Shown here: piece after piece, positions 1 to 29,914 of the stretch
Position numbering within the stretch: position 1 is the stretch's first letter
Layout: each line of letters opens with the position of its first letter
Assembly (NCBI GenBank): GCA_963843975.1
Contig: CAWJMG010000001.1
Location: 990,001 to 1,022,000 of the forward strand
DNA from: an uncultured Actinomycetes bacterium
Lineage (GTDB): Bacteria > Actinomycetota > Actinomycetes > S36-B12 > CAIYMF01
Direction: 5' to 3'
Length of the DNA: 32,000 nt
Position numbers and translations under genes: made by a program
The notes under the pieces: generated by a model
Told to the model about the DNA's origin: nothing
The model's input: only the letters and a program-made list of their open reading frames with translations
The model's database searches: none

Positions 1-1622
1 CGACGTCGTCCCCGGGCACACGGGCAAGGGCGCTGACTTCCGCCTCGCCACGATGAAGTACGGCGACTACACCGGGATCTACCACATGGTGGAGATCGCA
101 CCGGAGCACTGGGACCTGCTGCCCGAGATCCCCGACGGCCAGGACTCCGAGAACATCGGCACCGCCACCGAGGCAGAGCTGCGAGCAGCTCGGCTACATC
201 GTGGGGCAGATGCAGCGCGTCATCTTCGCGGCACCGGGGATCAAGGAGACCAACTGGAGCACGACCGGCCCCGTCCTCGGGGTCGACGGTGTCGAGCGCC
301 GCTGGGTCTACCTGCACTACTTCAAGGAGGGGCAGCCCTCGCTCAACTGGCTCGACCCCACCTTCGCCGCGGCGCGCCTCGTCGTCGGCGACGCGCTGCA
401 CTCCCTCGGCGACCTCGGCGCCGGCGCCCTGCGCCTGGACGCCAACGGATTCCTGGGCCTCGAGAAGACCACACCGGGCAACCCCGCATGGTCGGAGAAC
501 CACCCGCTGTCCGAGGCGGCGAACCACATGATCGCCGCGTCCGTGCGCAGCATGGGCGGCTTCACGTTCCAGGAGCTCAACCTCACGATCAACGACATCA
601 AGGCCAACTCGCTGCGCGGAGCCGACCTGTCGTACGACTTCGTGAACCGTCCGGCCTACCACCACGCGCTCGCGATGGCCGACACCGAGTTCCTTCGCCT
701 CACACTCAACGCGTCGCTGGCGATCGGCGTGCAGCCGGTGCAGCTCGTGCACGCGCTGCAGAACCACGACGAGCTCACGTACGAGCTCGTGCACTTCGAG
801 TCGGGCCACCGCCACGACCGCTTCGTGTTCCGCGGCCGCGACATCTCCGGCGAGCAGCTGGCGGGCGAGATCCGCGCCGACCTCGTCGAGCGGCTCACCG
901 GCGACGCCGGCCCGTACAACGCGCTCTTCACGACCAACGGCATCGCCTCGACCACCGCCACCGTGGTCACGGCGTCGCTCGGGATCGTCGACCTCAAGCG
1001 CATCACCAGCGACCAGGTCGCCGACGTCGTGAGCGCGCACATCCTGCTCGCGATGTTCAACGCGTGGCAGCCCGGCGTCTTCTGCCTGTCCGGCTGGGAC
1101 CTGGTCGGGGCTCTCACGCTGCCGCGCGAGGCCGTGGCCGAGCTGCTCGTGGAGGGCGACACCCGCTGGATCCACCGGTCCGCCTACGACCTCATGGGCT
1201 TCGACCCGGACCTCACGAGCTCGACGTCCGGCATCCCCAAGGGCCGGTCGCTGTACGGCACCCTGCCCGAGCAGCTCGCCGACGCGACGTCGTTCGCCTC
1301 GCGGCTCTCGGACGTCCTGGCGGTGCGCAGCGAGAACGGCATCGCCACCGGCGAGCAGCTCGACGTACCGCCGGTCGACCACCCGGGCGTGCTCGTCATG
1401 GTGCACACGCTCGACGGCACGACCGACCGCCAGATGACCGTGCTCAACTTCGGCCGCGAGGACGTCGTCACCCGCGTCACCTCGGCGAGCCTGTTCGAGG
1501 GCGCCCAGGTGATCGACATGCTCACCGGGGAGACGGTCGGTCGCGTGGACGCCGACCGCAGCGTGCCCGTGCCGCTCGGGCGCCTCTCGGGCCGCTCGCT
1601 GCGCCTCGTCGTCTCCGGCTAG
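1..1622 (+). pseudogene. GH13 alpha-amylase-family glycosidase/glucosyltransferase (TreS/amylosucrase-like), 5'-truncated by the window edge and interrupted by a +1 frameshift near 181-182
   Basis: Frame 2 from nt 2 reads [60 protein letters not shown] (GH13 DxxxxH region), then becomes Arg/Ala-rich junk. Frame 3 from 183 continues [15 protein letters not shown]...[16 protein letters not shown]...FTFQELN to TAG 1620-1622. The frames join if one base of GAGCTGC (176-182) is dropped. Confidence 0.8.
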
Positions 1623-1731
1623 GCCGTACGGGTCGTTCGTCCGTGTCGTGGGGCGACCTCAAGCCGCGGGCCGTCCGTGCCGAAGCCATCCTTGAGGCGT
1701 GTCACGAGGCGCGCCCTGAGACGGGGGCCCC

Positions 1732-2686
1732 GTGGACACGTTGGAGAGGGCGCCGGCAGCCGGGTGGTACGACGACGGCACCGGCCAGGTGCGCTGGTGG
1801 GACGGTGACGGCTGGACCGATCACGTCGCCCCCGCGTCCGCCGTACCCTCTGTGACCCCTGCCGCCACCGTCTCCGTCACCCCCGAGCCCGAGCCGGAGC
1901 CCGCGCCTGCCGCGGCGGCCGCGCCCGAGCCGCTGCGCCCCGGCGCGCCCGACCCCGTCCGCCCCGCGGCGGCCGCCCAGACCACCGCCGCCCAGACGGC
2001 CGCACCGTCGCCGTCGCCGTCGCCCTCTGCGGCTGGCAACGCGTTCCTGCCGGCGACGTCGTTCCTGCCCGAGACCACGAACCTGATCCCGGGAGTGGCT
2101 CCGACCGTCGCTCACATCACCAACCCCGACGAGGCCGCGGCCCGCTTCGGGTCGTCGACCCCCTCGACCTCGTCCCGCTTCGGCGCAGCCGGGGGCACGT
2201 TCTCGGCACCTCCGACGTCCGGCTCGTCCCGCTACGAGGGCGGCTCGCACAGCAAGGGCGGGCTCATCGCCCTGGCAGTGGTCGTCACCCTCGCCCTCGT
2301 CGGGATCGGCGTCTTCCGCTACATCAGCGGCCCGCCCAAGCCGGTCGCGACACCGGCGATCATCGCCGCAGCGGTCCCCACGCCGGCCACCAAGCTTCCC
2401 GGCCGGCTACACGGCCGACGGCCTCTCCGGCGGCTTCAAGGTCATGCCGCTGTCGTCGTGCGCGTCCGGCACGTCCTGCCGCACGATCAAGCTCGCGTCG
2501 CGCACGACCTGCAAGCGCCTCAGCGCCCTGGTGCTGTTCGCGACGGCGTCCGGCAACCGAGTCGGCAGCGACGTCGTCGCCGCCAAGAACGTCAAGGCCG
2601 GGAAGCCCGTGGCGCTGCTCGCCACGGTGCGCCCGAGCGGCGGCGAGACGGTCCGCGTCTCGAGCGTCGTCTGCCAGCAGTTCTAG
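1732..2686 (+). pseudogene. DUF2510-domain single-pass membrane protein, interrupted by a +1 frameshift near 2397-2400
   Basis: GTG 1732. N-terminal [21 protein letters not shown] (DUF2510 signature), Pro/Ala/Ser-rich linker, one TM helix (GGLIALAVVVTLALVGIGVF). After KLP (2392-2400) frame 1 turns into Arg-rich nonsense, while frame 2 continues AGYTADGLSGGFKVMPLSSCASGTSC...VVCQQF to TAG 2684-2686. Confidence 0.75.
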
Positions 2687-2732
2687 GGCCGCCGCGGGCT
2701 TCTGGCCCAGCGACGCGGCCGGCGTGCCGGAC

Positions 2733-3155
2733 CTACTGCTCGACCGGCGTCGGGTCGGAGCAGGCCCGCAGCTCGATCTGCGTGGCTGTCACGGTGTAGC
2801 GGCAGGTCTGCGTCGTGATCCCGGCGCCGGTGCCCGCGAACTTGTCCTGGGTGGAGTCGACCACCACCTCGACCTCGTCGGTGCCGCTCGCGCGATAGGT
2901 CGTGGTGATCGGGTCGCCCTCGGTCGTGGGCGCCTCGATGACGAGCGTCGTCATCGCCCCCGACGCCGTGCCCGCGGTGAAGCAGTCGAGCGCGTCCTTC
3001 GGCAACCCCTGGTCGCCGAGGCCCAGCCGGGCAGTGCCGCAGTCCGTCGTGGAGGGCGCCGGGGCGGCGACCTGCGACGTGCGCGCGGCGCAGCCTCCGA
3101 GCGCGGCCGTGGCGACGAGCGCGGCGATGACGATCGCGGACCTGGTCGTGCTCAT
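2733..3155 (-). CDS. Small secreted lipoprotein, function unknown
   Basis: 140-aa ORF with signal peptide and lipobox MSTTRSAIVIAALVATAALGGC. The mature part has protein-like composition with paired Cys residues. Confidence 0.75.
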   Translation of the reverse strand: MSTTRSAIVIAALVATAALGGCAARTSQVAAPAPSTTDCGTARLGLGDQGLPKDALDCFTAGTASGAMTTLVIEAPTTEGDPITTTYRASGTDEVEVVVDSTQDKFAGTGAGITTQTCRYTVTATQIELRACSDPTPVEQ

Positions 3156-3283
3156 GGCGGCTCCCCATCTCGACGGTCACGGCTCGGACGCCGTCCCGGC
3201 GACGGTGGTTCCGCGTCCGGCGTGCGCCGTGCCAGGGTCCGCTCCGCGTACGCTCGGGCTCACCACGACGTCGAGGGGACGAC

Positions 3284-3736
3284 ATGGACCACGCAGAACT
3301 CGCCGCTGCTGTGCTGGACGACGGCGGAGGCGCGCCCGCGTGGCTCGTCGCGTTCGTCCTCGTCGCGCTGAGCAGCGGCATCGGCTGGTGGTTCACCCGG
3401 CTCAGCCGCGGGGGCCGCGGCGCCAGGCCGTCCAGGGCTCAGCGGTCGAAGAAGTACCGCGCCCTCACCGAGGACGACGCGGTAGCCGCGACCCTGGCCG
3501 CGGCGGCCGCACCGGTCGAGCCGTGGACCGACCGGGTGGTGGAGCCCGTCGTGGCCGCCGTGCCCGACGTGAGCGAGGACGGCCGCACGCTGGCGCAGCG
3601 CCTCGACGAGCTCGACAACGCCCTGAACACGGGCAAGCTCAGCGCCGACGAGCACCGCATGCTGCGCGCCGCCCTGCTCGAGGGCTTCCCCGGCGGCTGG
3701 ACCCGCCCCGGCCCCGTCCCGCCGCCGACGCAGTAG
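3284..3736 (+). CDS. Membrane protein with C-terminal SHOCT-like domain
   Basis: 150-aa ORF with one TM (WLVAFVLVALSSGIGWWF). The C-terminal LDELDNALNTGKLSADEHRMLRAALLEG matches the SHOCT pattern (LxxLxxxGxLoxxEYxxxoxxLL). Confidence 0.65.
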   Translation: MDHAELAAAVLDDGGGAPAWLVAFVLVALSSGIGWWFTRLSRGGRGARPSRAQRSKKYRALTEDDAVAATLAAAAAPVEPWTDRVVEPVVAAVPDVSEDGRTLAQRLDELDNALNTGKLSADEHRMLRAALLEGFPGGWTRPGPVPPPTQ

Positions 3737-3864
3737 CGCCGCTGCGAGGTGCCCCGACCGGTCGCGGCGGGCGGCGCGGTCGGTGAGTGGTACTCGTTTC
3801 GCACGCTCGGGCGTCCGTTTCGACTACCCCTTCGGCCGTCGCAGCCGGAGTCGACCGTGCGGTG

Positions 3865-4677
3865 TCAGTCGCGGTCGAGGTAGGCGAGCTGAGCCAGTAC
3901 CGAGAGGTGCGCGGCCGGCCAGACCTCGCGGGGCACGTCGGCGTAGACGACCTCGACGACGTCGTCCGCGGTGACAGCGCCGCCGGCGAGCGCGGCGCGC
4001 ACCTGGTCGAGCCGCGCGTGCCGGTGCTGCTCGTACGCCGTCACCGCACCGACGGGATCCACGAGCGCCGGGCCGTGGCCCGGGAGCACGTGCGACGCCG
4101 ACGTCTCCTCGGCGACGAGGCGCAGGCGGTGCAGGGAGTGCAGATAGTCGGCGAGGCGGCCGTCGGGGTGCGCGACGACGGTGGTGCCGCGGCCGAGGAC
4201 GGTGTCGCCGGTGAGGAGCGCACCGTCGTTGCGCAGGTGGAACGACAGCGAGTCGGCGGTGTGGCCCGGCGTGCCGACCACACCGATCTCGAGGCCGCCG
4301 ACGGAGACGACGTCGCCGTCGACGACGCCCTCGTCGCCGAGGCGGTGCGCGGGGTCGAGCGCGGCGACGGGCGCGTGCACGCGTGCGGCGAAGGCGGCAG
4401 CACCCTCGGCGTGGTCGGGGTGGCCGTGGGTGAGGAGCACACGTACGACGCGCGCACCGTCGAGCGCGGCCTCGATGGCGTCGAGGTGGGAGGGCAGGTC
4501 AGGGCCCGGGTCGACGACGACGGCGACCTGCTCGCCGGGCACCCGCAGCACCCAGGTGTTGGTGCCGTCGAGCGTCATGGGGCTGGCGTTGCCGGCGAGG
4601 ACGCAGAGCGCCGACGGCGTGACCGAGCCGCCGGTCCACGGGCCGTCGCCGCCGAGCGGCAGGAGACCGCCGCTCAT
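3865..4677 (-). CDS. MBL-fold metallo-hydrolase (Rv3677c-like)
   Basis: ATG at 4677 (MSGGLLPLGG...). HxHxDH motif LLTHGHPDHAEG, later GTPGHTADS and LPGHG. Its ATG overlaps the stop of the upstream NUDIX gene (ATGA at 4674-4677). Confidence 0.9.
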   Translation of the reverse strand: MSGGLLPLGGDGPWTGGSVTPSALCVLAGNASPMTLDGTNTWVLRVPGEQVAVVVDPGPDLPSHLDAIEAALDGARVVRVLLTHGHPDHAEGAAAFAARVHAPVAALDPAHRLGDEGVVDGDVVSVGGLEIGVVGTPGHTADSLSFHLRNDGALLTGDTVLGRGTTVVAHPDGRLADYLHSLHRLRLVAEETSASHVLPGHGPALVDPVGAVTAYEQHRHARLDQVRAALAGGAVTADDVVEVVYADVPREVWPAAHLSVLAQLAYLDRD

Positions 4678-5528
4678 CGCCCGGTCCCGTCCGTCTCGCT
4701 GGCGTGCGGCTCGTCGACGCCGGCCACGACCTCGCGGGTGCGGTCGTGCACCAGCCGCCACTCGAGCCGGTCGTCGACGAGGAACGGAGCGGGCAGGAGG
4801 GGTACGACGTGCAGCCGGCGCAGGGCCGGCAGCGCGACCTCGACCGTGGGGTGCCGGCCGATCTCGGCGAGCGTCGCGATCGTCGGCGGCAGCATCGCCG
4901 TCTCGCCGCGCTCGAACGACGCGAGCGCGTCCGCCGGCCGCCACCACGCGACGCGGTCGGCCTCGCCGCCGCGCTCGGTGGCCTCCTGGCGGTCGGGCAG
5001 CCGCGCGGCGAGGAAGCGGGTGTCGTACCGGCGGTCCTCGACCTCGGGAGTCACCCAGTGCGCGAAGGGCACGAGCGCCTCGCCGTCCACGCGCAGGCCG
5101 CGCGAGCGCAGGAGGTCGGCGAAGAGCAGCCGCCCGGCGTCGAGCGCCTCGCGCTCGGCCTCGAAGGAGTCGTCGAGCAGCACCTGGCGGCCGTCCTCGT
5201 CGACGGCCAGGAGGACGCCGGACTCCTCGAACGTCTCACGCGCTGCGGCTGCGACCACAGCGATCGGGTCGTCGGTCGAGAGGCGTCGGGCGACGTCGTC
5301 GAGGTCCGTCGTGGCCGTGACGGGCACGAGAGAGTCGGACGTCTCGACGGCACCGCCCGGGTAGACGTGCATCCCGGCGGCGAAGGCCATCGAGCGCTGA
5401 CGCCGCATGAGGAAGACCTCGATGCCGGCGTCGGTGTCGCGCAGCAGAGCGATCGTGGCGGCGTCGCGCACCGGGACGGACGCAGGGTCCTCCTCGCCGC
5501 GCGCGATCCGCTCGGCCCGCTCGCGCAT
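4674..5528 (-). CDS. NUDIX hydrolase
   Basis: ATG 5528 (MRERAERIARGEE...). Nudix-box remnant PGGAVE...AAARETFEESGVLL. Stop overlaps the MBL start. The start is uncertain, since the ORF is open further upstream into the RidA stop. Confidence 0.8.
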   Translation of the reverse strand: MRERAERIARGEEDPASVPVRDAATIALLRDTDAGIEVFLMRRQRSMAFAAGMHVYPGGAVETSDSLVPVTATTDLDDVARRLSTDDPIAVVAAAARETFEESGVLLAVDEDGRQVLLDDSFEAEREALDAGRLLFADLLRSRGLRVDGEALVPFAHWVTPEVEDRRYDTRFLAARLPDRQEATERGGEADRVAWWRPADALASFERGETAMLPPTIATLAEIGRHPTVEVALPALRRLHVVPLLPAPFLVDDRLEWRLVHDRTREVVAGVDEPHASETDGTGR

Positions 5529-5560
5529 CCGCGCAGGCAGGCCGGCGAGCGCCTCCCCAG

Positions 5561-6025
5561 TCAGTCGGCGACCTCGAAGACGGCCTCGACCTCGACGGCG
5601 GCGTCGAGCGGCAGCGACGCGACGCCGACGGCGGAGCGCGCGTGCACGCCGCGCTCGCCGAAGGCCGCGCCGAACAGCTCGCTCGCGCCGTTGATGACGC
5701 CGGGGGCGCCGGTGAACTCGGGCACGCACGCGACGAACCCGACCACCTTGACCACGCGGGTCACCTTGTCGAGGTCGCCGATGACGGACTTCAGCGCGGC
5801 GATGGCGTTGAGCGCCGACGCCTGCGCGAGCTCCTTGGCCTGCTCGGGCGTGACGTCGGCGCCGACCTTGCCCGTCTGGGCCATCGCGCCGGCCACCATC
5901 GGCAGCTGGCCCGAGACGTAGACGTACGAGCCCGTGCGCACGGCAGGGGTGTACGCCGCGACCGGCGGGACCACGTCGGGGACGGTGAGGTCGAGCGCGG
6001 CGAGGCGCTCCTCGACAGCAGACAT
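5561..6025 (-). CDS. RidA/YjgF/L-PSP family reactive-intermediate deaminase
   Basis: 154-aa product MSAVEERLAALDLTVPDVVPPVAAYTPAVRTGSYVYVSGQLP...RSAVGVASLPLDAAVEVEAVFEVAD, a typical RidA fold sequence. ATG at 6025. Confidence 0.9.
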   Translation of the reverse strand: MSAVEERLAALDLTVPDVVPPVAAYTPAVRTGSYVYVSGQLPMVAGAMAQTGKVGADVTPEQAKELAQASALNAIAALKSVIGDLDKVTRVVKVVGFVACVPEFTGAPGVINGASELFGAAFGERGVHARSAVGVASLPLDAAVEVEAVFEVAD

Positions 6026-6030
6026 GCTGA

Positions 6031-6186
6031 TCAGCCCTTCGGACGCTTCAGGTAGGCGACGTAGTTCTCGGCGTTCGGGCCGGGCACCACCTGGACGAGC
6101 TCCCAGCCGTCCTGGCCCCATGTGTCGAGGATCTGCTTGGTCGCATGGATGAGCAGAGGAACGGTCGCGTACTCCCACTGGGTCAT
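6031..6186 (-). CDS. DUF4177-domain small protein (Rv3678A-like)
   Basis: Not in the ORF track because it is too short; hand translation of the minus strand gives MTQWEYATVPLLIHATKQILDTWGQDGWELVQVVPGPNAENYVAYLKRPKG (51 aa). ATG 6186, TGA 6031-6033, 5 nt upstream of the RidA start. Confidence 0.75.
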   Translation of the reverse strand: MTQWEYATVPLLIHATKQILDTWGQDGWELVQVVPGPNAENYVAYLKRPKG

Positions 6187-6261
6187 GGCCTGACCCTAGG
6201 GGGTGAGGTGTCCGTCGTCACCGGGACTGCTGCTCGGCGGGTACGGCGGCCCCGCGGCCCG

Positions 6262-6267
6262 TAGTGT
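6262..6267 (+). promoter_or_regulatory. Candidate -10 hexamer TAGTGT for a leaderless ArsA-like operon transcript
   Basis: TAGTGT (TANNNT class) lies exactly 7 nt upstream of GTG 6275, with no Shine-Dalgarno in between. This is the geometry of actinobacterial leaderless mRNAs. Confidence 0.3.
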
Positions 6268-6274
6268 CGGGGCC

Positions 6275-7316
6275 GTGACCGCGACCCCGGGCGACGCCGC
6301 CCCCGACTGGACCGGCGTCCGTCTCCACGTCGTCTCCGGCAAGGGCGGAACCGGGAAGACGACGGTCGCGGCGGCGCTCGCCCTCGCGCTCGCGCACGAT
6401 GGGCGCAAGGTGCTCGTGGTCGAGGTCGAGGGCCGTCAGGGCCTCTCCCAGATCTACGACGTACCACCCCTCCCCTACGCCGAGCGCAAGGTGGCGACGG
6501 CCCCCGGCGGCGGCGAGGTCTTCGCGCTCGCGATCGACCCCGAGGAGGCCCTCCTCGAGTACCTCGAGATGTTCTACAACCTGCGCCGGGCGGGCACCGC
6601 CCTGCGCCGCATGGGCGCGATCGACTTCGCCACCACCATCGCCCCCGGCGTCCGCGACGTCCTGCTGACCGGCAAGGCGAAGGAGGCGGTACGCCGCAAG
6701 AACGGCAGCAAGCACGTGTACGACGCCGTCGTGATGGACGCGCCGCCCACGGGCCGCATCGCCCGCTTCCTCAACGTCAACTCCGAGGTCGCCGGCCTCG
6801 CCCGCACCGGGCCCATCCGGTCGCAGGCCGACGCGGTCATGGACGTCATCGCCTCGCCGCTCACCGCGGTGCACCTGGTGACGCTGCTCGAGGAGATGCC
6901 GGTGCAGGAGACGGCCGACGCCGTCCTCGAGCTGCACGCGGTCGAAGCTGCCGGTCGGCGGCATCGTCGTGAACCAGATGCGCCGCCCGCTGCTGCCGGC
7001 GAACGCGCAGGCCAAGGCGCGCAAGGGCCGCCTCGACAAGGCCGCGATCGCGCACGACCTCGCAGCGTCCGGCGTCGTGTCCGGCAGCGGTGCTCTCATC
7101 GGGTCGCACGGCGGCGTCCTCGTCGACGACGTCGTCCGCGCCCTCGCGGTCGAAGGGGCCGAGCACGCCGAGCGCGTCGCGCTCGAGACCCGCGAGCGCG
7201 ACAACCTCGAGGTGCTCGAGCGTCCGACGTACGAGCTGCCGTTCCTCGCGGACGGCGTCGACGTCGGCACCCTCTACGAGCTCGCCGACCTGCTCCGGGA
7301 GCAGGGCATGGCATGA
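6275..7316 (+). pseudogene. ArsA/Get3-like P-loop ATPase 1 (Rv3679-like), interrupted by a +1 frameshift between 6934 and 6950
   Basis: VTATPGDAAPDWTGVRLHVVSGKGGTGKTTVAAALALALA (deviant Walker A) ...DAPPTGRIARFL...LLEEMPVQETADAVLEL in frame 2. After that only frame 3 stays protein-like (KLPVGGIVVNQMRRPLLPA...LADLLREQGMA, TGA 7314-7316). The start could also be GTG 6203. Confidence 0.85.
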
Positions 7317-8479
7317 GCACCTTCACGCGCGAGGTCGTCCCTCGCTCGCCCGTCCTCGACATCGACGCCCTGCTCGACGACCGCGGAATCCGCGTCCTCG
7401 TCTGCTGCGGATCGGGCGGCGTCGGCAAGACGACGACCGCCGCGGCGCTCGGTCTGCGCGCGGCCGAGCGCGGGCGCAGCGTCGTCGTCCTCACGATCGA
7501 CCCGGCCCGGCGGCTCGCGCAGAGCCTCGGGCTGACCGAGCTCGACAACGACCCGCGGCCGGTCGACGGCGTCGACGGCACCGGCACGCTCGACGCGATG
7601 ATGCTGGACATGAAGCGGACGTTCGACGAGTTCGTCGAGTCCAACGCAGACCCCGAGCGGGCGGCGACGATCATCTCCAATCCGTTCTACCAGTCGCTGT
7701 CGAGCTCGTTCGCGGGCACGCAGGAGTACATGGCGATGGAGAAGCTCGGCCAGCTCCGGGCCCGCTCGGAGGCCGAGGGCCGCTGGGACCTCGTCATCGT
7801 CGACACCCCGCCGTCGCGCTCGGCGCTCGACTTCCTCGACGCGCCGCGGCGCCTCGGGTCCTTCCTCGACGGCCGGTTCCTGCGCATCCTCGCCGCGCCC
7901 GCGAAGGCCGGCGGCCGCGCCTACATGAAGGTGATCAGCGCCGGGTTCGGAGTGTTCACCAACGTGCTCTCGCGGGTCATCGGCGGCCAGGTGCTCACCG
8001 ACATCCAGACCTTCGTCGGATCGGTCGACACGCTCTTCGGCGGCTTCCGCCAGCGCGCGGACGAGACGTTCCACATGCTGCAGGCGCCGGACACCGCGTT
8101 CCTCGTGGTGGCTGCTCCCGAGCGTGATGCGCTGCGCGAGGCGTCGTACTTCGTCGAGCGGCTCGAGAGCGAGAAGATGCCGCTCGCCGGTCTCGTGCTC
8201 AACCGGGTGCAGACGACGACGGTCCCCGAGCTGGACGTCGCGATGGCGACGGCGGCCGCGGCTCGGCTCGAGGCGCAGTCGGGCACCTCGGTGACGGCGG
8301 CTCTCCTGCGGATCCACGCCGACCGGGTCGCCACGCTGAACCGCCAGCGGCGGATGGCGGAGCGGTTCACGTCGGTGCACCGCACGATCGAGGTCGCGAC
8401 GGTGCCCGTCATGCCGGCGGACGTGGTCGACCTCGACGGTCTGCGGCAGGTCGGCCAGGCCCTGGCGGACCGGCTCTAG
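7313..8479 (+). CDS. ArsA/Get3-like P-loop ATPase 2 (Rv3680-like)
   Basis: ATG 7313 overlaps the upstream stop (ATGA). MSTFTREV...VLVCCGSGGVGKTTTAAALGL (Walker A), LTIDPARRLAQSLGL, DLVIVDTPPSRSALDFLDAP. Confidence 0.9.
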   Translation: MSTFTREVVPRSPVLDIDALLDDRGIRVLVCCGSGGVGKTTTAAALGLRAAERGRSVVVLTIDPARRLAQSLGLTELDNDPRPVDGVDGTGTLDAMMLDMKRTFDEFVESNADPERAATIISNPFYQSLSSSFAGTQEYMAMEKLGQLRARSEAEGRWDLVIVDTPPSRSALDFLDAPRRLGSFLDGRFLRILAAPAKAGGRAYMKVISAGFGVFTNVLSRVIGGQVLTDIQTFVGSVDTLFGGFRQRADETFHMLQAPDTAFLVVAAPERDALREASYFVERLESEKMPLAGLVLNRVQTTTVPELDVAMATAAAARLEAQSGTSVTAALLRIHADRVATLNRQRRMAERFTSVHRTIEVATVPVMPADVVDLDGLRQVGQALADRL

Positions 8480-8494
8480 CCGGATCTCCCGGGC

Positions 8495-8815
8495 TCAGCC
8501 GGCGACCCGGGCCTCGGTGAGGTCGATGAGCGACGCCGAGGTGCCGTACTCCTCGCGCGCGGTCTCGAGCAGACGCCGCCAGCTCGTCACCTGGGGTCGG
8601 CGGCGCAGCAGGGCCCGGCGCTCGCGCTCAGTCATGCCGCCCCACACGCCGAACTCGATGCGGTTGTCCAGGGCGTCCGCGAGGCACTCGGTGCGCACGG
8701 GGCACGCGAGGCAGATCGCCTTGGCGCGGTTCTGGGCCGCCCCCTGCACGAACAGCGCGTCCGGGTCGCTCGCGCGACATGCCGCCGTTGTGGTCCAGTC
8801 CGTGGTCCAGGTCAT
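8495..8815 (-). CDS. whiB4: WhiB-family Fe-S transcription factor, WhiB4-type
   Basis: 106 aa with the four-Cys pattern C-x(n)-CxxCxxxxxC (AACRASDPDALFVQGAAQNRAKAICLACPVRTECLADALDNRIEFGVWGGMTERERRALL). As I recall it, this closely parallels Mtb WhiB4 (LFVRGAAQRKAAVICRHCPV...DALDNKVEFGVWGGMTERQRRALL). It is divergent from a class A PBP, as whiB4/ponA2 are in Mtb. Confidence 0.85.
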   Translation of the reverse strand: MTWTTDWTTTAACRASDPDALFVQGAAQNRAKAICLACPVRTECLADALDNRIEFGVWGGMTERERRALLRRRPQVTSWRRLLETAREEYGTSASLIDLTEARVAG

Positions 8816-9056: not shown

Positions 9057-9147
9057 TGAGCGAGGAGTGCCCGACGGGCCCCCGCAGGGGAACCCCGGCG
9101 AGCCAGGAGACGTCCCACCGGTATCAGCCGCCTATCCTCGACAGGCC

Positions 9148-11380: not shown

Positions 11381-11396
11381 CGGGCCGAGAGACGCC

Positions 11397-11446: not shown

Positions 11447-11463
11447 CGGGTCGTACGCCGGGG

Positions 11464-18022: not shown

Positions 18023-19744
18023 TCAGGTGAACGTGTAGTAGATCCAGCCGCTCGACCCGGACGAGCTGAAGGCCCCTGCGCCCGTCGAGGCCATCATGCG
18101 ACCGCGCCCGACTCCGCCGTTCGTGAAGAGCGTGGCGAAGGCCTGCGAGGAGAAGTCGAGCGTCGCGCAGGCCAGCGTGGACGTCGTCTGCCACGTCGAC
18201 CCGTTGAGCCGCTGCGCGACGAGGTCGACGCATCCACCGGGCTTTGCGGGCGTGACCAGCACCGAGATGTCGGGGTTGGTGCCCGCGCGGAAGAGGTAGC
18301 CGGAGCCGGAGCGGCCATAGGCGCCACCCATCCGCACCGTCACCTTCGCCCTCACGTTGACGGTGCGCGCCCTGCCGACGGGCAGGTAGCGGTAGTCGCC
18401 GGCGAACTTCACCGAGTAGATGGTCTTCACGGTCACCGGCATCGAGACGACGAGGTTTCCGCTGGCATTCACCTTGCCCGCCTTGACCATCCGGGCGGCA
18501 CCGCCGTTGAGCTTGCGGGCGTAGATCGCGACGGCCCGGTTGTTGTACGTCGTCCCGAGGTGCACCTTCACGACCGCCCGGCCGCCGTACGCGTAGACGC
18601 TCTTGTCGCTCGTGATGGTGATGCTTGTCGAGGCGCGCGACACGGTGACGCTGCGCTTGGCCGTGACCGAGCTCCGGTCCATGTCGCCCGCCCAGCTCGC
18701 CGTCCACGCGACCGGACCGCCTACGGTCGGGACGTCCTTGTACGAGAACCTGCCGGTGGAACTGGTCTTCACGTACAGCGTGCGCTTGCCGGACAGCCCG
18801 GTGCGCGTGATCGTCACGGTGGCCGACGGCACCGCGGCACCGCCGCTCGTCAGGGTGCCCGTGAGCGTGTACGAGTGCCCTCGCGCGACGGTCGTCGGTG
18901 CGCTCAGGGCGAGGACGCTCGCCGCCTTCACCGCACTGACGCTGATCGACGTGGTCGCGGCGTAGTGAGAGGCGTCCCCGGCGTACTCGACCGTGTAGGT
19001 CCGTGCCGCGGTCCCGATCGTGTCGTCGACCGACCAGGTGCCGTCGACGCCGGTGGTCGCCGGGAACGACGTCGTCCCGCCGGTGCCGTCCGGGCGCGAC
19101 ACGGTGACGGAGGCACCCGCGAGCGGGCCGACGGCATCGGCCAGCGTGCCCGACACGGTGACCGGGCCGTTGACCCGCGCCGTCGGCGGCGTGGTCGAGG
19201 TGAGCGTCGAGGGGGACTTGGTCGCGTTGTAGGCGATGGTCCCGCGGTTGGCGGACGCCCCTCCCTCGCAGTGGTTCTCGAACGTCGCGGCGAAGCGGGT
19301 CACCTCGCCGGTCCCGGCGTCCTTCTCGATCTCGAGCACGGTGAACGAACCCGTGACCGTGTTGCAGCCGCGGCTGTCGCCGTAGACGTCGAGGCCCGGG
19401 TGGGGCGGCGTCGCGAACGGCGCCCTCTGGGCATCCGTGTACGTCGTACCGGCGACGAAGTCCTCGCCCTCGGGCGCCCGGAGGTCGACGGTCCAGTACT
19501 GGACGTAGGCGCCCTGCAGCACGAAGAAGCTCGCCGTGCTCGCCGTGAGGTTCGGCGTGAAGGTCGCGTTGGCCTCGGTGAACGAGTACGCGGCGCCACC
19601 GGTGACGTAGTCGCCGGCGTCCCCGTCCATCACGAGGTAGGTGTAGCCCGTAACCGCCTGCGCCGGTGAGGCGGCGGCGAGGCCGCCGATCAGAAGCGCC
19701 CCGGCGGCGACGACGGACACGGCTGCGCGACGACGCGACGACAT
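18023..19744 (-). CDS. Large secreted protein with Ig-like/beta-sandwich repeats, function unknown
   Basis: 573-aa uninterrupted ORF. Signal peptide MSSRRRAAVSVVAAGALLIGGLAAASPAQA. Thr/Ser/Val/Gly-rich beta-type composition with recurring TVT/VTVS strands (for example TYTVEYAGDASHYAATT, HSYTLTGTLTSGG). Confidence 0.75.
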   Translation of the reverse strand: MSSRRRAAVSVVAAGALLIGGLAAASPAQAVTGYTYLVMDGDAGDYVTGGAAYSFTEANATFTPNLTASTASFFVLQGAYVQYWTVDLRAPEGEDFVAGTTYTDAQRAPFATPPHPGLDVYGDSRGCNTVTGSFTVLEIEKDAGTGEVTRFAATFENHCEGGASANRGTIAYNATKSPSTLTSTTPPTARVNGPVTVSGTLADAVGPLAGASVTVSRPDGTGGTTSFPATTGVDGTWSVDDTIGTAARTYTVEYAGDASHYAATTSISVSAVKAASVLALSAPTTVARGHSYTLTGTLTSGGAAVPSATVTITRTGLSGKRTLYVKTSSTGRFSYKDVPTVGGPVAWTASWAGDMDRSSVTAKRSVTVSRASTSITITSDKSVYAYGGRAVVKVHLGTTYNNRAVAIYARKLNGGAARMVKAGKVNASGNLVVSMPVTVKTIYSVKFAGDYRYLPVGRARTVNVRAKVTVRMGGAYGRSGSGYLFRAGTNPDISVLVTPAKPGGCVDLVAQRLNGSTWQTTSTLACATLDFSSQAFATLFTNGGVGRGRMMASTGAGAFSSSGSSGWIYYTFT

Positions 19745-20919: not shown

Positions 20920-23408
<2,489 letters not shown>

Positions 23409-23626
23409 GGTGGGGGTCCGCCTCACGTGTGCGATACCGACAGGGATGCCTGCAAACGTGGTCATCGTACCGGCGGGAGAAATCGCACCACCCTCGCGTC
23501 CGAATGGTGGGATATCCGTCTCGTGCCCCAGATCGGCGGACGAACCTTCTGCGGAGGAGGCGTCCGGGGCCGTTCCCGACGAAGGATCCACGGTCTCCGG
23601 CCCGGTCGTGCCGGACGTCGTCGGCG

Positions 23627-24406
23627 CTACAGCGCCGGCAGCCCGGCCTCGATCGCGGCCCACGAGCGGGCAGGCGTGGTCGCGCCCTCGACGGCGACCA
23701 GTCGCACGACCGAGCCGGTGCGCGTCACGAGCTCGCGCCACGTCGTGCCGAACGCCGAGTCGACCTGCACGCTCGCATAGGCACCGGCCGGCGCCTTCGC
23801 CCGCGTGACGACCATCGAGCCGCCCGGCCCGGCGACGCAGCGGCCGAGCGCGGCGGTGTAGAGCCCGACGAAGCGCTTCGCGGACGCCTCGCTGCCGAAG
23901 TCGAGGGCGAGCGCGACGCCGTGCGCACCGCTCGCGCGGTAGGCGTAGTCGACCTCGAGCGCGTGCTCGGGCACGGGGAGGTCGTCGGCGTACACGGACT
24001 CGTCGGCGCAGCCGATGGGCCGGACGGCCTGGATCACGTCCTGCGGGTCACGCGCGGTCACGGGCGTGCCGTTGCCGGTGTAGCCGTCCTCGGCGCTGCC
24101 GGGGTCGACGCGGGCGACCCAGCCGCCGCCGAGCGCATCGGGATCGGGCAGCGCCTTGCCGCTGAGCGGTCCGCTGCTCGTGGCCGGGGTCGCCGTACGG
24201 TCGAGGCCGGAGGGACTCGCCGACGGGGACGGCGACGTCTCGGACGCGCTCGGCGTGACGGTCGCCGCGGGCGTGCTGCTCGGGCTCACGGCCACCGGCT
24301 CGCTCGACGCGGTCGGCTCGGGGCTCGCGGACGAGCAGCCCGCGACGAGGACGACGACGGCGAGGGCCACGGCGACGGCGCGCAGGCGCGGGGCGTCAGC
24401 CGCCAT
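23627..24406 (-). CDS. Lipoprotein, function unknown
   Basis: 259 aa. Signal peptide and lipobox [20 protein letters not shown], a Ser/Pro/Thr-rich linker, then a globular C-terminal domain. The ATG at 24406 overlaps the upstream M15 gene end by 11 nt. Confidence 0.75.
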
Positions 24407-25949
24407 TGCTGCTGAAATGCTGGTAGTCCGGCGGCGACCAGCGTCCGCCCCACACCCACCCGAACGCGCGGAACGTCTGCGCCACCACGCTCCACGACGA
24501 GATGACGCCGTGGTCGTCGAGGTTCTGCTTGCGGAACAGGTAGTACGGGTACCTCGCCGCCGACGGGTAGACGCGAGACCAGGTCACGTACGGGTTCTCG
24601 AAGGTGTTGATGTCGATCGCGTTGCCGAACGAGTGCTGGCTGATCCGGTAGCGGTTGCCCGTGACCGGGCGGCAGTTGTACGCCGAGGTGTTGCCGGCGT
24701 TCATCGCGGCGATGTCCGAGCCGCTGGGAGAGCGGTTGCCGCCGAGGTAGTAGTAGTCGACCGGGCGCACCTGCTTAAAGCGGAACTTCAGCTCGAACGA
24801 CTTCGTGAACACAGCGCGCACGGTCTTCACCGCGTAGTCGCGCAGGATGATGTCGCCGCGCTGCACGCTGCCGTCGTACGCCCAGTAGTTCACGGTGAGG
24901 CGGCGCAGCTTGGACGGCCCGACCGGGCAGCCGTTGCGGTACGAGTACTTCACCGACGAGCGCGTGAGCGGGCCGGACACCACGGCGTCCGCGGCCGCCG
25001 TCACGGTCGTCGTCGTCATGGTCGTCGCGGACGAGCCGTCGGCCCAGACCGCGCGCGCACGCCAGGTGATGCTGCCCACGACGTTGGGCCGATGGGCGAC
25101 CCACCAGACGCCGCTGACCGTCGGCTTCGTCGACGCGACGGTCACCCAGCCGCTCGCCCGCAGGCGCTGCACGCTGACCGTGATGGGTCCGCCCGAGAGC
25201 GGGTCGACGGCGCCGGAGAACGTCATCGAGCGCTGCGCGTACGCCGTGGCCGGAGCCGAGAGCGTGACCGAGTGACCGGGTGTCGAGGCCAGCGTGGTCA
25301 CCGTGACCGTGCCCTCCGCCGTACGGCCGGTGGCCGAGGTGAGCGTGTAGGCGAACGACTCGACGCCGGTCCAGCCGGTGTCGGGCGTGTAGAGCACGCC
25401 GGTGCCGGCATCGACCGTCGCGGATCCGCGCCGCGGGTCACCGACCGCCGTGACGGTGAGGGCCGAGTCGTACGGGTCGGTGTCGTTGCCGAGCAGAGGG
25501 ATGCGCACCTGTACGCCGGGCGGAGTGGTGGCGGTGTCGGGGCCGGCGGTCGGGGGCGCGGGCGCGACCGTGGCGGTCACCGTCGCGGTCGAGTCCTGGC
25601 CGGACGAGTCCGACAGCGTGTACGTGAACGTGTCGACGCCGTACCAGCCGGCATCGGGCGTGTACGAGACCGCGGGCCGCTCGACCCCGCTGACGGTCAC
25701 CGCCGTCACGACCACATCGCCGTGATCGGGGGCGCCGACCTGGTTCGCGCGCGGCAGCGAGAGGTCGGGGGCGCCGGTCCACGTGTCGTTGGCCAGGACG
25801 TCGACCACGGCGGTCGTGCCGCCCTGCAGCGCGGCGGCGTCGTCCACAGCCGTGGGCGCGAGCGTGCCGGCGTCGGCAGGCACGACGGTGAACGCGCTCG
25901 CGAGCGCGACCACCGCGGTGGCTGACACGAGCCGTGCAAGGCGCCGCAC
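24396..25949 (-). CDS. Secreted protein with cadherin/Ig-like repeats and a C-terminal M15 (VanY / D-Ala-D-Ala carboxypeptidase-like) metallopeptidase domain
   Basis: Signal peptide MRRLARLVSATAVVALASAFTVVPADA. Two repeats of the type xAVDDxA...VDVLANDT / IPLLGNDTDP...YTPDxGWxGVDxFTYT. The C-terminus carries SQHSFGNAIDIN (M15 HxxxxxD zinc motif) and PPDYQHF (second His). Confidence 0.8.
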   Translation of the reverse strand: MRRLARLVSATAVVALASAFTVVPADAGTLAPTAVDDAAALQGGTTAVVDVLANDTWTGAPDLSLPRANQVGAPDHGDVVVTAVTVSGVERPAVSYTPDAGWYGVDTFTYTLSDSSGQDSTATVTATVAPAPPTAGPDTATTPPGVQVRIPLLGNDTDPYDSALTVTAVGDPRRGSATVDAGTGVLYTPDTGWTGVESFAYTLTSATGRTAEGTVTVTTLASTPGHSVTLSAPATAYAQRSMTFSGAVDPLSGGPITVSVQRLRASGWVTVASTKPTVSGVWWVAHRPNVVGSITWRARAVWADGSSATTMTTTTVTAAADAVVSGPLTRSSVKYSYRNGCPVGPSKLRRLTVNYWAYDGSVQRGDIILRDYAVKTVRAVFTKSFELKFRFKQVRPVDYYYLGGNRSPSGSDIAAMNAGNTSAYNCRPVTGNRYRISQHSFGNAIDINTFENPYVTWSRVYPSAARYPYYLFRKQNLDDHGVISSWSVVAQTFRAFGWVWGGRWSPPDYQHFSSNGG

Positions 25950-26011
25950 TGCCCCACCCCTGTCCCGGTGCCGACGTGGCCACCCCAGCAGTGACGAGCA
26001 CGAACGGTTCC

Positions 26012-26028
26012 TAGTCGTGAATCGACTA
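26012..26028. promoter_or_regulatory. Palindrome TAGTCG-N5-CGACTA in the AT-richer spacer upstream of the M15 peptidase gene
   Basis: TAGTCGTGAATCGACTA lies 63-79 nt upstream of the M15 gene start (25949, minus strand). It is the locally lowest-GC stretch of this intergenic region. Confidence 0.25.
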
Positions 26029-26102
26029 TGACACGGGGCCCCTTGAGGTCTGGGCCACCGTCCGCTGGCCGAACCTGTGCGTGTCCCGGTCCGGAGCCCG
26101 TG

Positions 26103-26696
26103 CTACCGGGCGGGATCGACGTCGACGTCGGTGTCGATCGGCACCTCGAGGCGCACGTGCGCGACGAGCGACTGCAGCGCGCGCAGCGCCGCCGAGGCCG
26201 CGACGCCCCAGGTCGAGAGGTACGAGAACTGCCACCACCAGAGGGCCTCGAGCGGGCGGCCCGCGGCGTGGTGGGCGAGGCCGTGCAGCAGGTCGGACGT
26301 GATCTGGGACAGGTCGTCCGACAGCCGCGCGGCCATGACCTCGGGGCCGGCGTACGGGTCGAACACCTCGACGTAGTCGTCGACGGGGCCGAGCAATTCG
26401 TGCAGGCGGTTGCGCAGCTTGTCGATGTCGGGCTCGGCACCGGCGTCCGGCTCGAAGCGGTCGTCGGGCACGACGTCCTCGATCGCGCCGAGCGGCGCGC
26501 CGGCCGCGAGGAGCGAGGACAGCTCGAGCAGCAGGATCGACACCGACTCGTCCGGAGTGCCCGCGCTGGCGACCACCTCGATGCTGCGCACGAACTGCGC
26601 GGCCGCACCGGCCATGTGGTCGGACAGGTCGACGAGGTCGGCCGGGGCCGGGTCAACCTCGAGGTCGGGGCTCTGCACCTTGTCGCTCATGGGCAC
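26103..26696 (-). CDS. DUF5063 domain-containing protein
   Basis: 197-aa acidic protein (…LLLELSSLLAAG…LWWWQFSYLSTWGVAASAALRALQSLVAH…) immediately downstream of recR, the usual actinobacterial position for DUF5063. The start is GTG 26696 or ATG 26690. Confidence 0.75.
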   Translation of the reverse strand: MPMSDKVQSPDLEVDPAPADLVDLSDHMAGAAAQFVRSIEVVASAGTPDESVSILLLELSSLLAAGAPLGAIEDVVPDDRFEPDAGAEPDIDKLRNRLHELLGPVDDYVEVFDPYAGPEVMAARLSDDLSQITSDLLHGLAHHAAGRPLEALWWWQFSYLSTWGVAASAALRALQSLVAHVRLEVPIDTDVDVDPAR

Positions 26697-26702
26697 AGCG
26701 TG

Positions 26703-27302
26703 TCAGAACTCGACGCGTCGACGTCCCTCGAACGCGCGCCCGAGCGTCACCTCGTCGGCGTACTCGAGGTCGCCGCCCACGGGGAGGCCGCTCGCGAGGC
26801 GCGTGACGGCGAGCCCGAGGGGCTTGGTGAGGCGGGCCAGGTAGGTGGCCGTCGCCTCACCCTCGAGGTTGGGGTCCGTGGCGAGGATGAGCTCGACGAT
26901 GCTGCCGTCGGCGAGCCGCGTCATGAGCTCCTTCACGCGGAGGTCGTCGGGCCCGATGCCTTCGATCGGGCTGATCGCGCCGCCCAGCACGTGGTAGCGC
27001 CCGCGGAACTCGCGCGTGCGCTCGATCGCGACGATGTCCTTGGGCTCCTCGACGACGCACAGCACCGTCGGGTCGCGACGAGGGTCCTTGCAGATGCGGC
27101 ACTCGACGTCCTCGGCGACGTTGCCGCAGATCGCGCAGAAGCGCACCTTCTCCTTGACCTCGAGCAGCGCGTTCGCGAGGCGGCGTACGTCGGTGGGCTC
27201 GGCCTGCAGGATGTGGAACGCGATGCGCTGCGCGCTCTTGGGCCCGACGCCCGGGAGACGGCCCAGCTCGTCGATGAGGTCCTGGACGATGCCCTCGTAC
27301 AC
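26703..27302 (-). CDS. recR: Recombination mediator RecR
   Basis: 199 aa [32 protein letters not shown] (HhH), C4 zinc finger [16 protein letters not shown], Toprim region [17 protein letters not shown]...[13 protein letters not shown]. Confidence 0.97.
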
Positions 27303-27327
27303 AGTGGTTGCCTGGTTCCTGTCCGGC

Positions 27328-29397
27328 TCAGCCGTTGTCGTACTCGGTCATGACCGTGCCGCCGAGCTCGCGCTGCACGAGCGCGAGACCGGACAGGCCG
27401 GTGTCGTCGACGTCGTCGTCGTCATCGCTGACGACGTCCGCCTCGGGCGGGGTCTGGGTGGCCTGCTCCTCGGCGACGACCGCGGCCGCGCGCTCGCGCG
27501 GGCTCGGGCCCTCGGGCTCGGACGGCGCGGGCTCGCTGTGGTCGGACGGCTCGGGCGCACGGGCGGGCTCGGGCGCGGTGGCGCGGCCCGGGTCGAGCAC
27601 GAGGTCGACGTCGACGTCGAGGCGCAGGACGTCGAGCACCGCGATCTTCAGCAGCTCGAGGTGGCCCTTGTTGCTGCGCAGGATGCCCATGCGGACCTTG
27701 TCCGGGTGGGCGAGCGTGAGCAGGCGCGTGCTGCGGCTGAGCGGCACCGCGCCCTCGGCCAGCGTGTGCGCGACCCGGCTCGAGGACTTCAGCGCCTCGA
27801 GCACGGCCGGCCACATCGACACGACGGGGCCGAGGTCGAGCGCCTCGTTGGGGTCGGTCGGAGCGGCGGTTGCGGCAGCGGCGGGCTCGTCGGCCGGGGC
27901 GGCCTCGGGCTCCGCGGCCACCGGCGCTGCTGCGTCGCCGGGTGCGGCGGTGGTCGGGGCGACGCTCGACAGCCGCGGCGGTGCCGGCGGGCCGCCCGCG
28001 GGCCGCTCGGCAGGGGCGGTCGCGGCGGGACGCGTGGGTGCCGGGCGCGACGGCGGCGCGACGGCCTCGGCGGTGCCGGCGGCGTCGGCCGGGGCAGCGG
28101 GCTCCGGCGTCGCGGCCGGCTCGACCGGCTCGGGAGCGGCCGGTGCAGCAGGAGCAGGCGCGGGAGCAGGCGCGACGGCGGCTGGACGCGCCGGCGGCTG
28201 CGGGCGCTGGGCCGGTGCGGCCGCGGGGTCGCCGAGGAACGAGACGCGGTGCTCGAGTCGCTCGAGGCGGGCAGCGACGCCTGCCTCGGAGCCGTCGGCC
28301 GCGGGCAGCAGCAGCCGGGCCATGAGCAGCTCGAGCTGCAGCCGCGGCGCGGTGGCGCCCTTGAGCTCGGAGAGGCCGACGCTCACGAGGTCGGCGGCGC
28401 GCGAGAGCTGGGCGAGGCCGAGGCGCGCGCTCTGCTCCTTCATCGTGGCGATGACGTTGTCGGGCGCGTCGATCAGGCCCTGGTCGGCGGCCTCGGGCAC
28501 CTCGTGCAGCACGACCAGGTCGCGCAGGCGCTCGAGCACGTCGGCCGCGAAGCGGCGGGGGTCGAGGCCGGACTCCACCACGGAGTCGACGACGGCGAAC
28601 ATCTCCGGGCCGTCGCTGTCGGCCAGAGCGTCGACCACGCGGTCGAGCAGTGCGGCGTCGGTGAAGCCGAGCTGGGCGACGGCATCGGCGTACGTCAGGC
28701 CCTCGGGGCCGCTGCCGGCGATGAGCTGGCCGAGCACCGACTGCGCGTCGCGCACTGAACCGGCGCCGGCGCGGGCGACGAGCGCGAGCGCCTCCGCCTC
28801 GTAGGGCACGCCCTCCTGGTCGCACATCCAGGCGAGGTGCTCCTGCAGGCGGCGCGCAGTGACGAGGCGGTAGGGGTAGTGGTGGGTGCGCGAGCGGATG
28901 GTGGCGAGGATCTTGTCCGGCTCGGTGGTCGCGAAGACGAACTTCAGGTGCGGCGGCGGCTCCTCGATCAGCTTGAGGAGGGCGTTCGCGGCATCGACGG
29001 TGAGCTGGTGGGCCTCGTCGATGATGTAGACCTTGTAGCGGCTCGCGGCGGGGGCGTACATCGCCTTCTCGCGGAGCTCGCGGGCGTCGTCGATGCCGCG
29101 GTGGCTCGCGGCGTCCATCTCGACGACGTCGATCGAGCCGGGGCCGTTGGGCGCGAGGTCCTGGCAGCTGCCGCACTCGCCGCAGGGGTCGGACGTCGGG
29201 CCCTTCTCGCAGTTGAGCGAGCGGGCCAGGATGCGCGCGGTCGAAGTCTTGCCGCAGCCGCGGGGGCCGGTGAACAGGTAGGCGTGGTGGGCCCGCCCGG
29301 TGTCGATCGCCCGGGCCAGCGGCACGGTGACGTGCTCCTGCCCGATGACGTCGGAGAGACGCCCGGGGCGGTAGGTGCGGTACAGGGCGAGGGACAC
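27328..29397 (-). CDS. dnaX: DNA polymerase III subunit gamma/tau
   Basis: GTG 29397. [23 protein letters not shown], Walker [16 protein letters not shown], zinc module [16 protein letters not shown], a long Ala/Pro-rich linker, and an acidic C-terminus ...[32 protein letters not shown]. Confidence 0.95.
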
Positions 29398-29443
29398 GCG
29401 AGAACCCTAGTCGCCCCGCCGGACAGCGACCTACAGCCGGACG

Positions 29444-29528
29444 AGCCGGGCGATCTGCCCCCGAAGTGGTCGCTTCCCCGCCTGATTGGTCGCTTCTTCA
29501 CGACCGGACCGGGGGCAGATTCCCGGCT
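29444..29528 (-). terminator. Long-range stem (11 + 7 bp) enclosing a 2 x 10-bp direct repeat, between the HxlR stop and the dnaX start
   Basis: 29453-29463 ATCTGCCCCCG pairs with 29510-29520 CGGGGGCAGAT, extended by 29444-29450 with 29522-29528. The enclosed loop carries TGGTCGCTTC twice (29467-29476, 29487-29496) and a single complementary CGACC (29501-29505). Confidence 0.4.
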
Positions 29529-29532
29529 GTGA

Positions 29533-29914
29533 CTAGGCCGAGGCCTGGGCCTCGTCGTACGCCCCGCGCGAGCGGATGACGTCCTCGATGTGGTCGCGGG
29601 CCCAGGCGTCGAGCGCCGAGAGCGGCCCGGTGAGCGTGCGGCCGGCCGCCGTGCAGCTCGTACTCCACCTTCGGCGGCACGGCGGCATGCACGGTGCGCG
29701 TGACGAGGCCGTCGCGCTCCAGGCCGCGCAGGGTCTGGGTGAGCATCTTCTGGCTGACGCCGTCGATGCGGCGCGAGAGCTCGGAGAAGCGCATCGGGCC
29801 CTCACGCAGCGCACCGACCACGAGCACGGTCCAGCGGTCGCCGATGCGGTCGAGGATCGTCCGGGTCGCGCAGTTGCGGTGGTACGGGTCGGGCTCGAAG
29901 CCGCTGGCCTGCAT
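29533..29914 (-). pseudogene. HxlR-family winged-helix transcriptional regulator, interrupted by a +1 frameshift near 29653-29654
   Basis: ATG 29914 preceded by GGAGG (GTG 29920 is also possible). MQASGFEPDPYHRNCATRTILDRIGDRWTVLVVGALREGPMRFSELSRRIDGVSQKMLTQTLRGLERDGLVTRTVHAAVPPKVEYEL in one frame. The second frame continues TAAGRTLTGPLSALDAWARDHIEDVIRSRGAYDEAQASA to TAG (29533-29535). Confidence 0.85.

Follow-up and report, generated by a model that had tools for sequence, protein, structure and literature searches.

Among the m5C (5-methylcytosine, also 5mC) methyltransferases catalogued in REBASE, those of the AluI type recognize AGCT, and those of the SacI and M.Sgr13350I types recognize GAGCTC. 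The occurrence of m5C at AGCT has been documented predominantly in Actinomycetales and, at GAGCTC, for an M.Sgr13350I-like enzyme in Patulibacter (PMC11275837). In Nanopore R10.4.1 data, modification-related errors have been described that are strand-specific and motif-locked, and that survive both Medaka and Racon (Hammerhead study, PMC11610603). For strains of Propionibacterium freudenreichii with 5mC at GRGCYC, a motif which includes GAGCTC, a published study gives more than 100 errors in native Oxford Nanopore Technologies assembly, versus two for a strain without the motif (PMC11649196). The present work concerns a 32,000-nt stretch of DNA (hereafter, the window), positions 990,001 to 1,022,000 of contig CAWJMG010000001.1 from an uncultured Actinomycetes bacterium, within which eight conserved protein-coding genes are each interrupted by one single-base break of the reading frame at the tetranucleotide AGCT. 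These eight frame breaks are almost certainly artefacts and not features of the genome of this organism, and they are very probably consensus errors of a long-read-only assembly at mis-decoded AGCT sites, most likely by way of base modification.

The pattern in the window resembles the R10.4.1 modification errors (PMC11610603, PMC11610573, and PMC11389150, the last two being outbreak-tracing and multicentre studies) in its locking to a short motif, in the differences among organisms and among consensus methods, and in its persistence after polishing with Medaka. It differs from them in that the earlier cases are mostly C>T and G>A substitutions at 5mC or 6mA (N6-methyladenine) motifs, whereas those observed here are 1-nt insertions or deletions (indels) at the edge of AGCT, for which a modification is only inferred. 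The likeness to P. freudenreichii lies in a high-GC actinobacterium and a motif that includes GAGCTC. However, GRGCYC was rejected as the motif of the window, since three of the sites (AAGCTC, GAGCTA, and CAGCTC) do not fit it, their common core being AGCT, and none of the eight indels is found at GGGCCC, GAGCCC or GGGCTC; in that study the errors were apparently not mapped to the motif (PMC11649196).

The G+C content of the window is 72% and long open reading frames (ORFs) are present in all six frames; hence, the coding frames were mapped from the GC content at each codon position (GC3), blind to the sites listed in the original prediction, which had been made from the letters of the window. 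In this map of the entire 32 kb, the coding frame was observed to switch without an intervening stop or start codon at exactly eight places and at none besides. The other changes of phase are ordinary gene boundaries, viz. those in an operon for RidA, NUDIX and MBL (metallo-beta-lactamase)-hydrolase proteins, where the stop and start codons overlap, the passage from RecR to DUF5063, and those at a small membrane protein and at LytR_C. The claim that eight genes carry one single-base break each was thus re-found in full by an independent route, and its count of seven inserted bases and one missing base agrees with the alignments, which show seven extra bases and one lost T. The base-level positions below are derived from alignments with same-strain contigs and orthologues and, for site 8, from protein homologues.

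Site 1: position 181, plus strand, extra G in GAGCT[G]C; treS-type maltose alpha-D-glucosyltransferase gene, 2-1622, its 5' end cut by the window.
Site 2: position 2396, plus strand, extra T in AAGCT[T]C; gene for a DUF2510 membrane protein, 1732-2686.
Site 3: position 6934, plus strand, extra G in GAGCT[G]C; gene for a BagA-type Get3/ArsA-like ATPase, 6275-7316.
Site 4: position 9290/9291, plus strand, extra G directly 5' of AGCT in GAG[G]AGCTA, either G being possible; gene for a class A penicillin-binding protein (PBP), 9148-11380.
Site 5: position 12676^12677, plus strand, T of AGCT missing, CAGC-CTGC in place of the true CAGCTCTGC; metallophosphoesterase gene, 11980-12908.
Site 6: position 14215, plus strand, extra C in G[C]AGCTC; gene for a fusion of an MFS (major facilitator superfamily) transporter, a cyclic-nucleotide (cNMP)-binding domain and a patatin domain, 13435-16582.
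Site 7: position 23259, minus strand, extra C on the plus strand in G[C]AGCTC (GAGCT[G]C on the gene strand); aspartate kinase gene, 22136-23399.
Site 8: position 29654, minus strand, extra C on the plus strand in G[C]AGCTC (GAGCT[G]C on the gene strand); gene for an HxlR-type regulator, 29533-29914.

Three sources of related sequence bear upon these sites. A scan of reference genomes, in which the central MBL-fold gene of the window served as anchor, provided 80 related loci, and the locus L002 is collinear with window positions 6812-28452 at 80-92% identity. Closer relatives are represented by the Joint Genome Institute (JGI) metagenome contigs L081-L084 and L169-L172, which come from five samples, are 93-96% identical to the window and cover its positions 3839-16034 and 22084-28094. 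The same strain is represented by the Logan contigs L085, L086, L167, and L174 of sequencing run ERR12037365, which overlap the window over 13,632 nt containing 34 AGCT sites.

For sites 1 and 2 the comparison is with the same strain. Contig L085 corresponds to window positions 1-4187 with zero mismatches and is without the extra G of site 1, so that the gene forms one ORF of 727 amino acids (aa); against the NCBIfam model TIGR02455 this ORF scores 846 bits (cut-off 719) over model positions 3-684 of 689. A Pfam search of this gene, which had been described as GH13, gave no match, and NCBIfam identifies it as TreS. The extra T of site 2 is likewise absent from L085, where the ORF is intact at 317 aa; this DUF2510 gene has a match to PF10708 in its N-terminal half.

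For sites 3-7 the true sequence is given by the relatives. At site 3, L002 and the four JGI contigs L169-L172 are without the extra G, the JGI gene encodes 346 aa, and the repaired protein scores 487 bits against NF053622 BagA (cut-off 400), over positions 2-325 of 325. At site 4, GAG-AGCTAC is present in L002, L006, L169, and L170, where it encodes I-E-S-Y-E, and the JGI gene of 743 aa equals the repaired PBP in length. The inserted base had earlier been placed within GAGCTAC, as its A, a position that these orthologues correct to the G directly 5' of AGCT. The sequence CAGCTCTGC, proposed earlier as the reconstruction of site 5, is the one carried by L002, L169 and L170; with this repair GHTHGGQLCVPFWG is restored and the protein is 309 aa long, as is that of the JGI gene. 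The extra C of site 6 is absent from L169, L005, L006 and L002, and the repaired protein reads AAFVVSSKRHRSPLLDP. At site 7, neither L002 nor any of the four JGI contigs L081-L084 has the extra base; the JGI protein P0017 is intact with 420 aa, and the repaired aspartate kinase scores 732 bits against NF005153 (cut-off 585), over positions 4-421 of 421. In the aspartate kinase gene of L005, a long-read metagenome-assembled genome (MAG), there is an apparent +1 of its own, GAGC[G]TCGATG on the plus strand, which aligns to window positions of about 23240-23250, some 15 nt from site 7, and is independent of AGCT.

Site 8 was compared with a set of 80 metagenomic HxlR homologues. Its junction is crossed in one frame, as VEY-x-LT..G..L, in 81 of 81 homologue alignments, and Leu-Thr is restored only by deletion of one of the two bases that come immediately after AGCT, either G or C, which fixes the position to within one base. 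The frameshifted HxlR product P0087 (138 aa) forms a singleton cluster, present in the source contig only. With single-base repair of all eight sites (seven removals and one T restored), continuous proteins are obtained; an exact look-up of nine repaired full-length proteins gave no match, the Logan assembly being fragmentary and the gene starts uncertain. Exact look-ups of RecR (with V or with M as its first residue) and of the aspartokinase fragment in the contig index gave no match either.

Some 18 kb of the window could be aligned with the JGI relatives. These alignments contain about 1000 substitutions, and the only indels within coding regions are those at sites 3, 4, 5, 6 and 7; the remaining indels are all intergenic. 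Two intergenic length differences from JGI relatives of 94% identity, an intergenic C run at 11384 that reads CC in one and CCC in the other, and a 9-nt CCCCCCTCC-type insertion with a C run at 13122-13140, after the gene for tRNA-Pro, could be either real divergence or homopolymer errors.

The feature that these breaks share is their position. In the base-level alignments, all eight indels touch or fall inside the AGCT core, as the original prediction had stated of every break. The density of AGCT had been put at about one per 100-120 nt; in fact there are only 97 copies in 32 kb, or one per 330 nt, which is three times rarer, and therefore the coincidence is stronger than was stated at first. 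As positions touching an AGCT core make up 1.5% of the window, and those within 3 nt of one 3.3%, the chance that eight of eight indels lie at AGCT is between 3e-15 and 1.5e-12. When each site is oriented with the indel on the T^C side, all eight have the form AGCT^C. Five of them (sites 1, 3, 6, 7, and 8) show the identical change of GAGCTC to GAGCTGC, seen as GAGCTGC or GCAGCTC; the sharing of this heptamer had been recognized correctly, but its count, given as at least three and perhaps four sites, was too low. The orientation of the indel is independent of that of the gene, as seen at site 6, where the hexamer GAGCTC is read in frame as G AGC TCG and not as Glu-Leu, and thus the effect is one upon DNA and not upon codons. 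The base that follows also matters: within the window, AGCTC followed by A or T is affected at 6 of 23 sites (Fisher p = 3e-5 versus all other contexts), AGCTCC at 1 of 13 and AGCTCG at 1 of 90, whereas none of the about 70 AGCT sites that have A, G or T as the next base is affected. Such dependence upon context is as expected of a signal-decoding artefact.

The same-strain contigs provide a second view of the motif. Across the 13,632 nt of overlap, the window and the Logan contigs show three differences, all of them at AGCT, and no mismatch elsewhere. Two of these are the extra bases at 181 and 2396 (sites 1 and 2), and the third is the following.

Ninth AGCT discrepancy: 19525..19533 (differing bases 19528-19530), minus strand; a compensated shift around AGCT, the sole difference in 6653 nt of L174.

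At this position GCGAGCTTCTTC in the window encodes S-F and GCGAAGCTCTTC in the Logan contig encodes K-L, while the JGI orthologues P0025 and P0026 have NF and SF. To judge from these orthologous sequences, it is the window that is correct and the Logan contig that is wrong, which shows that the reads of ERR12037365 are themselves ambiguous at AGCT. The two consensus procedures settled the same ambiguity at AGCT differently, and this looks like a motif-locked error at the level of the reads. The K-L error of the Logan contig has given rise to a separate protein entry, P0027.

Further evidence comes from the frequency of frameshifts in the related loci, which were detected by all-against-all tblastn (fast mode) of coding-like ORFs over the 80 loci, an event being counted where a single intact query aligned to the target in two neighbouring segments of different frame and no fewer than two further loci supported it. 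In the Nanopore-only MFD loci, 39 in number, there are 84 frameshifts in 792 kb, versus two in 662 kb for the 41 loci from Illumina MAGs or isolates, and frameshifts per base are thus at least 30-fold higher in the former. In the MFD pipeline, R10.4.1 reads are assembled with metaFlye and polished once with Medaka 1.8.0, but not with short reads (PMC12313526). In its density of broken genes, 8 per 32 kb, the window resembles the worst of the MFD loci (L022 and L032 reach 10 per 20 kb); it differs from most such frameshift-rich long-read-only MAGs, which show no single motif, in that all of its breaks share one tetranucleotide. In the other Nanopore MAGs, AGCT is found near 6 of the 84 frameshifts, where 5.8 are expected. 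Their 546 AGCTC[A/T] sites have at most three frameshifts nearby, versus 6 of 23 such sites in the window (Fisher p = 2e-7). As these other MAGs do not fail at AGCT, the failure in the window is peculiar to this organism or sample, which is to be expected where the DNA itself is different at the motif. A de novo search for k-mers enriched at frameshifts in the other Nanopore MAGs was mostly noisy, with fuzzy junction windows and few events per locus, and only L022 showed a suggestive context. In L022 (MFD09848.bin.1.64), 6-7 of the 10 frameshifts are at CCCGG/CCGGGC (for example, 3339-3356, 8957-8980, 9417-9434, and 11896-11913), with p of about 1e-5 before correction for multiple testing; this may be a motif-locked or C-run error context of its own, distinct from AGCT.

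The original prediction had favoured errors of sequencing or assembly locked to a motif over pseudogenes, and this view is strongly supported by the intact genes found in the same strain (sites 1 and 2) and in relatives (sites 3-7), and also by the disagreement of the two assemblies at AGCT only and by the excess of frameshifts in Nanopore-only loci. The 1.4 Mb length of the contig, the density of frameshifts and the AGCT-specific disagreement of the two assemblies suggest that the source assembly is Nanopore-only. The course of events is probably as follows: in the reads, AGCT-containing sites are mis-decoded at the motif edge by a single base, most often at AGCTC[A/T] and typically with GAGCTC turned into GAGCTGC, and at about 8% of AGCT sites the erroneous form was then made permanent by the assembler and polisher, breaking roughly one quarter of the genes. 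The root cause would be a host methyltransferase modifying AGCT or GAGCTC and thereby shifting the nanopore signal. That a base modification causes the errors is an indirect conclusion, which we regard as reasonably probable, and interference with nanopore basecalling by a modified base in AGCT or GAGCTC fits all of the findings. The modification would most plausibly be m5C, as this is the one known for AluI-type, SacI-type or M.Sgr13350I-type enzymes in Actinomycetota. These enzymes share their recognition words with the pattern seen here, a link by motif only, and the associations by name of AluI and SacI with this organism are only analogies.

Several points weigh against a modification-induced error of Nanopore reads. 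The R10.4.1 errors attributed to modification in the literature consist for the most part of C>T and G>A substitutions (PMC11610603), whereas the errors observed here are indels. The same-strain comparison of 13.6 kb shows only indels, with one compensated pair among them, and no substitution, and therefore the published error signature is not seen in it. No methyltransferase or restriction gene was found among the approximately 30 genes of the window. For the platform of ERR12037365 and of the source contig, no record was found in the papers and supplements searched. Since ERR12037365 is itself error-prone at AGCT, it does not provide sites 1 and 2 with an independent control of high accuracy, and the MFD control rules out a generic weakness of the basecaller only given the same chemistry and models. 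A modification other than ordinary 5mC (e.g., N4-methylcytosine, a bulkier group or a change in the backbone) is a less favoured candidate that could be reported by the indel-only signature at the T^C edge of AGCTC, with its strong dependence upon the next base, and we consider it rather doubtful.

Of the alternatives to modification-induced error, the one that survives best is an artefact that involves no modification, in which a particular version of the basecaller or polisher is weak at k-mers such as GAGCTCA on any DNA. The extended k-mer context does have a strong influence upon the errors, neither platform nor model is on record for the source contig, and the documented modification errors are substitutions, not indels. 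However, the AGCTC[A/T] sites of the 39 related high-GC Nanopore loci account for frameshifts only at the level of chance, and codon strings like GAG-CTC-ACC are very common in high-GC genomes, so that a weakness of this general kind would have come to light everywhere. We therefore regard this explanation as unlikely.

Real mutations, either as true pseudogenes or as the result of SacI-like self-cutting (GAGCT^C) and a subsequent error-prone end joining with gain of one base, are much less probable. The Actinomycetota possess Ku/LigD end joining, and five of the insertions lie exactly at the position of SacI cleavage, between T and C of GAGCTC. However, GAGCTC is not the sequence at sites 2, 4 and 5, the last of which has lost a base from within AGCT, and the ninth discrepancy is a compensated shift and not a scar. 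Neither the insertion of site 1 nor that of site 2 is present in the other assembly of this strain, and the genes are intact in close relatives from five samples. The broken genes show no secondary decay and, when repaired, their proteins score as full-length members of their families. Further, eight knock-outs in 32 kb, with those of aspartate kinase and the class A PBP included, would imply that about 25% of genes are broken, which is not viable. Both the end-joining scar and genome decay were rejected on these grounds, the latter also because the positions of the breaks are locked to AGCT; a real site-specific mutagenic process at AGCT, which the original prediction had named as its second choice, is likewise unsupported.

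Still less probable is a consensus in which strains or alleles are merged, with indels arising where co-assembled variants differ. The source is probably a metagenome, and strains of 93-96% identity are present in other samples; however, the two same-strain assemblies show no mismatch outside AGCT in 13.6 kb, and a mixture would leave substitutions throughout the sequence instead of singling out one tetranucleotide (P of about 1e-12). Programmed frame change, by ribosomal frameshifting or transcriptional slippage at AGCT-containing sites, can be virtually dismissed. In its favour, the frames remain intact and protein-like downstream of the breaks; however, seven of the eight sites have no slippery heptamer or homopolymer run, in all relatives a single frame suffices for the orthologues to encode these proteins, and eight unrelated genes would all need recoding.

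Some other features of the window may be recorded here. The gene that carries site 6 encodes a fusion of about 1048 aa (13435-16582) in which an MFS transporter, a cyclic-nucleotide-binding domain and a patatin-like phospholipase are joined; this architecture is unusual, and it is kept in close relatives (over 1034 aa on L169). The MBL-fold anchor gene (16598-17410, minus strand) is assigned to the Pfam family Anti-Pycsar_Apyc1 (PF23023) where L174 has been annotated by precomputation. As at least 453 chromosomal relatives of it are present across the Actinomycetota, it is probably a housekeeping cyclic-nucleotide or phosphodiesterase enzyme and not a phage anti-defence gene. The two ATPases described as ArsA-like (6275-8479) are a BagA/BagB pair (Get3-like) adjoining WhiB and the class A PBP, an arrangement that is kept in the JGI relatives. 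Between the PBP and phosphoesterase genes there is a YqeY-like gene (11464-11928, minus strand), not mentioned in the original prediction and encoding 154 aa in the JGI relatives, which accounts for the minus-strand GC3 signal at these positions. The intact RNA genes are those for tRNA-Pro(CGG) at 12971-13045, tRNA-Ser(GGA) at 30956-31043 (minus strand) and the small signal recognition particle RNA at 31123-31219; the segment with tRNA-Pro is inverted in L002 relative to its neighbours.

The consequences of these results concern first the public record. The proteins of the window are on record from a contig of 1,417,531 bp (NCBI and ENA). This public contig of 1.4 Mb would carry about one false frameshift per 4 kb, and about one quarter of its genes would be truncated or chimeric in protein databases, as exemplified by the 356-aa aspartate kinase fragment P0016 and by the 138-aa HxlR chimera P0087. 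Such entries can pass for pseudogenes, gene loss or novel proteins, and the many frameshifts in the loci of Nanopore-only MAGs affect the quality of protein predictions from such public MAGs in general. The locking to a motif offers a cheap diagnostic and a rule for repair, namely that AGCTC[A/T] sites should be inspected.

With regard to the organism, the results add nothing new on the biology of the eight genes; the pattern is real and highly non-random, but it is not a new biological feature. It does predict, in a form that can be tested, a modification of AGCT or GAGCTC in this lineage. If an unusual modification is indeed present in this uncultured Nanopelagicales-related actinobacterium, the motifs at frameshifts in finished long-read MAGs could serve to read out methylomes without raw signal, and such frameshift-motif signatures could also flag unusual modifications.

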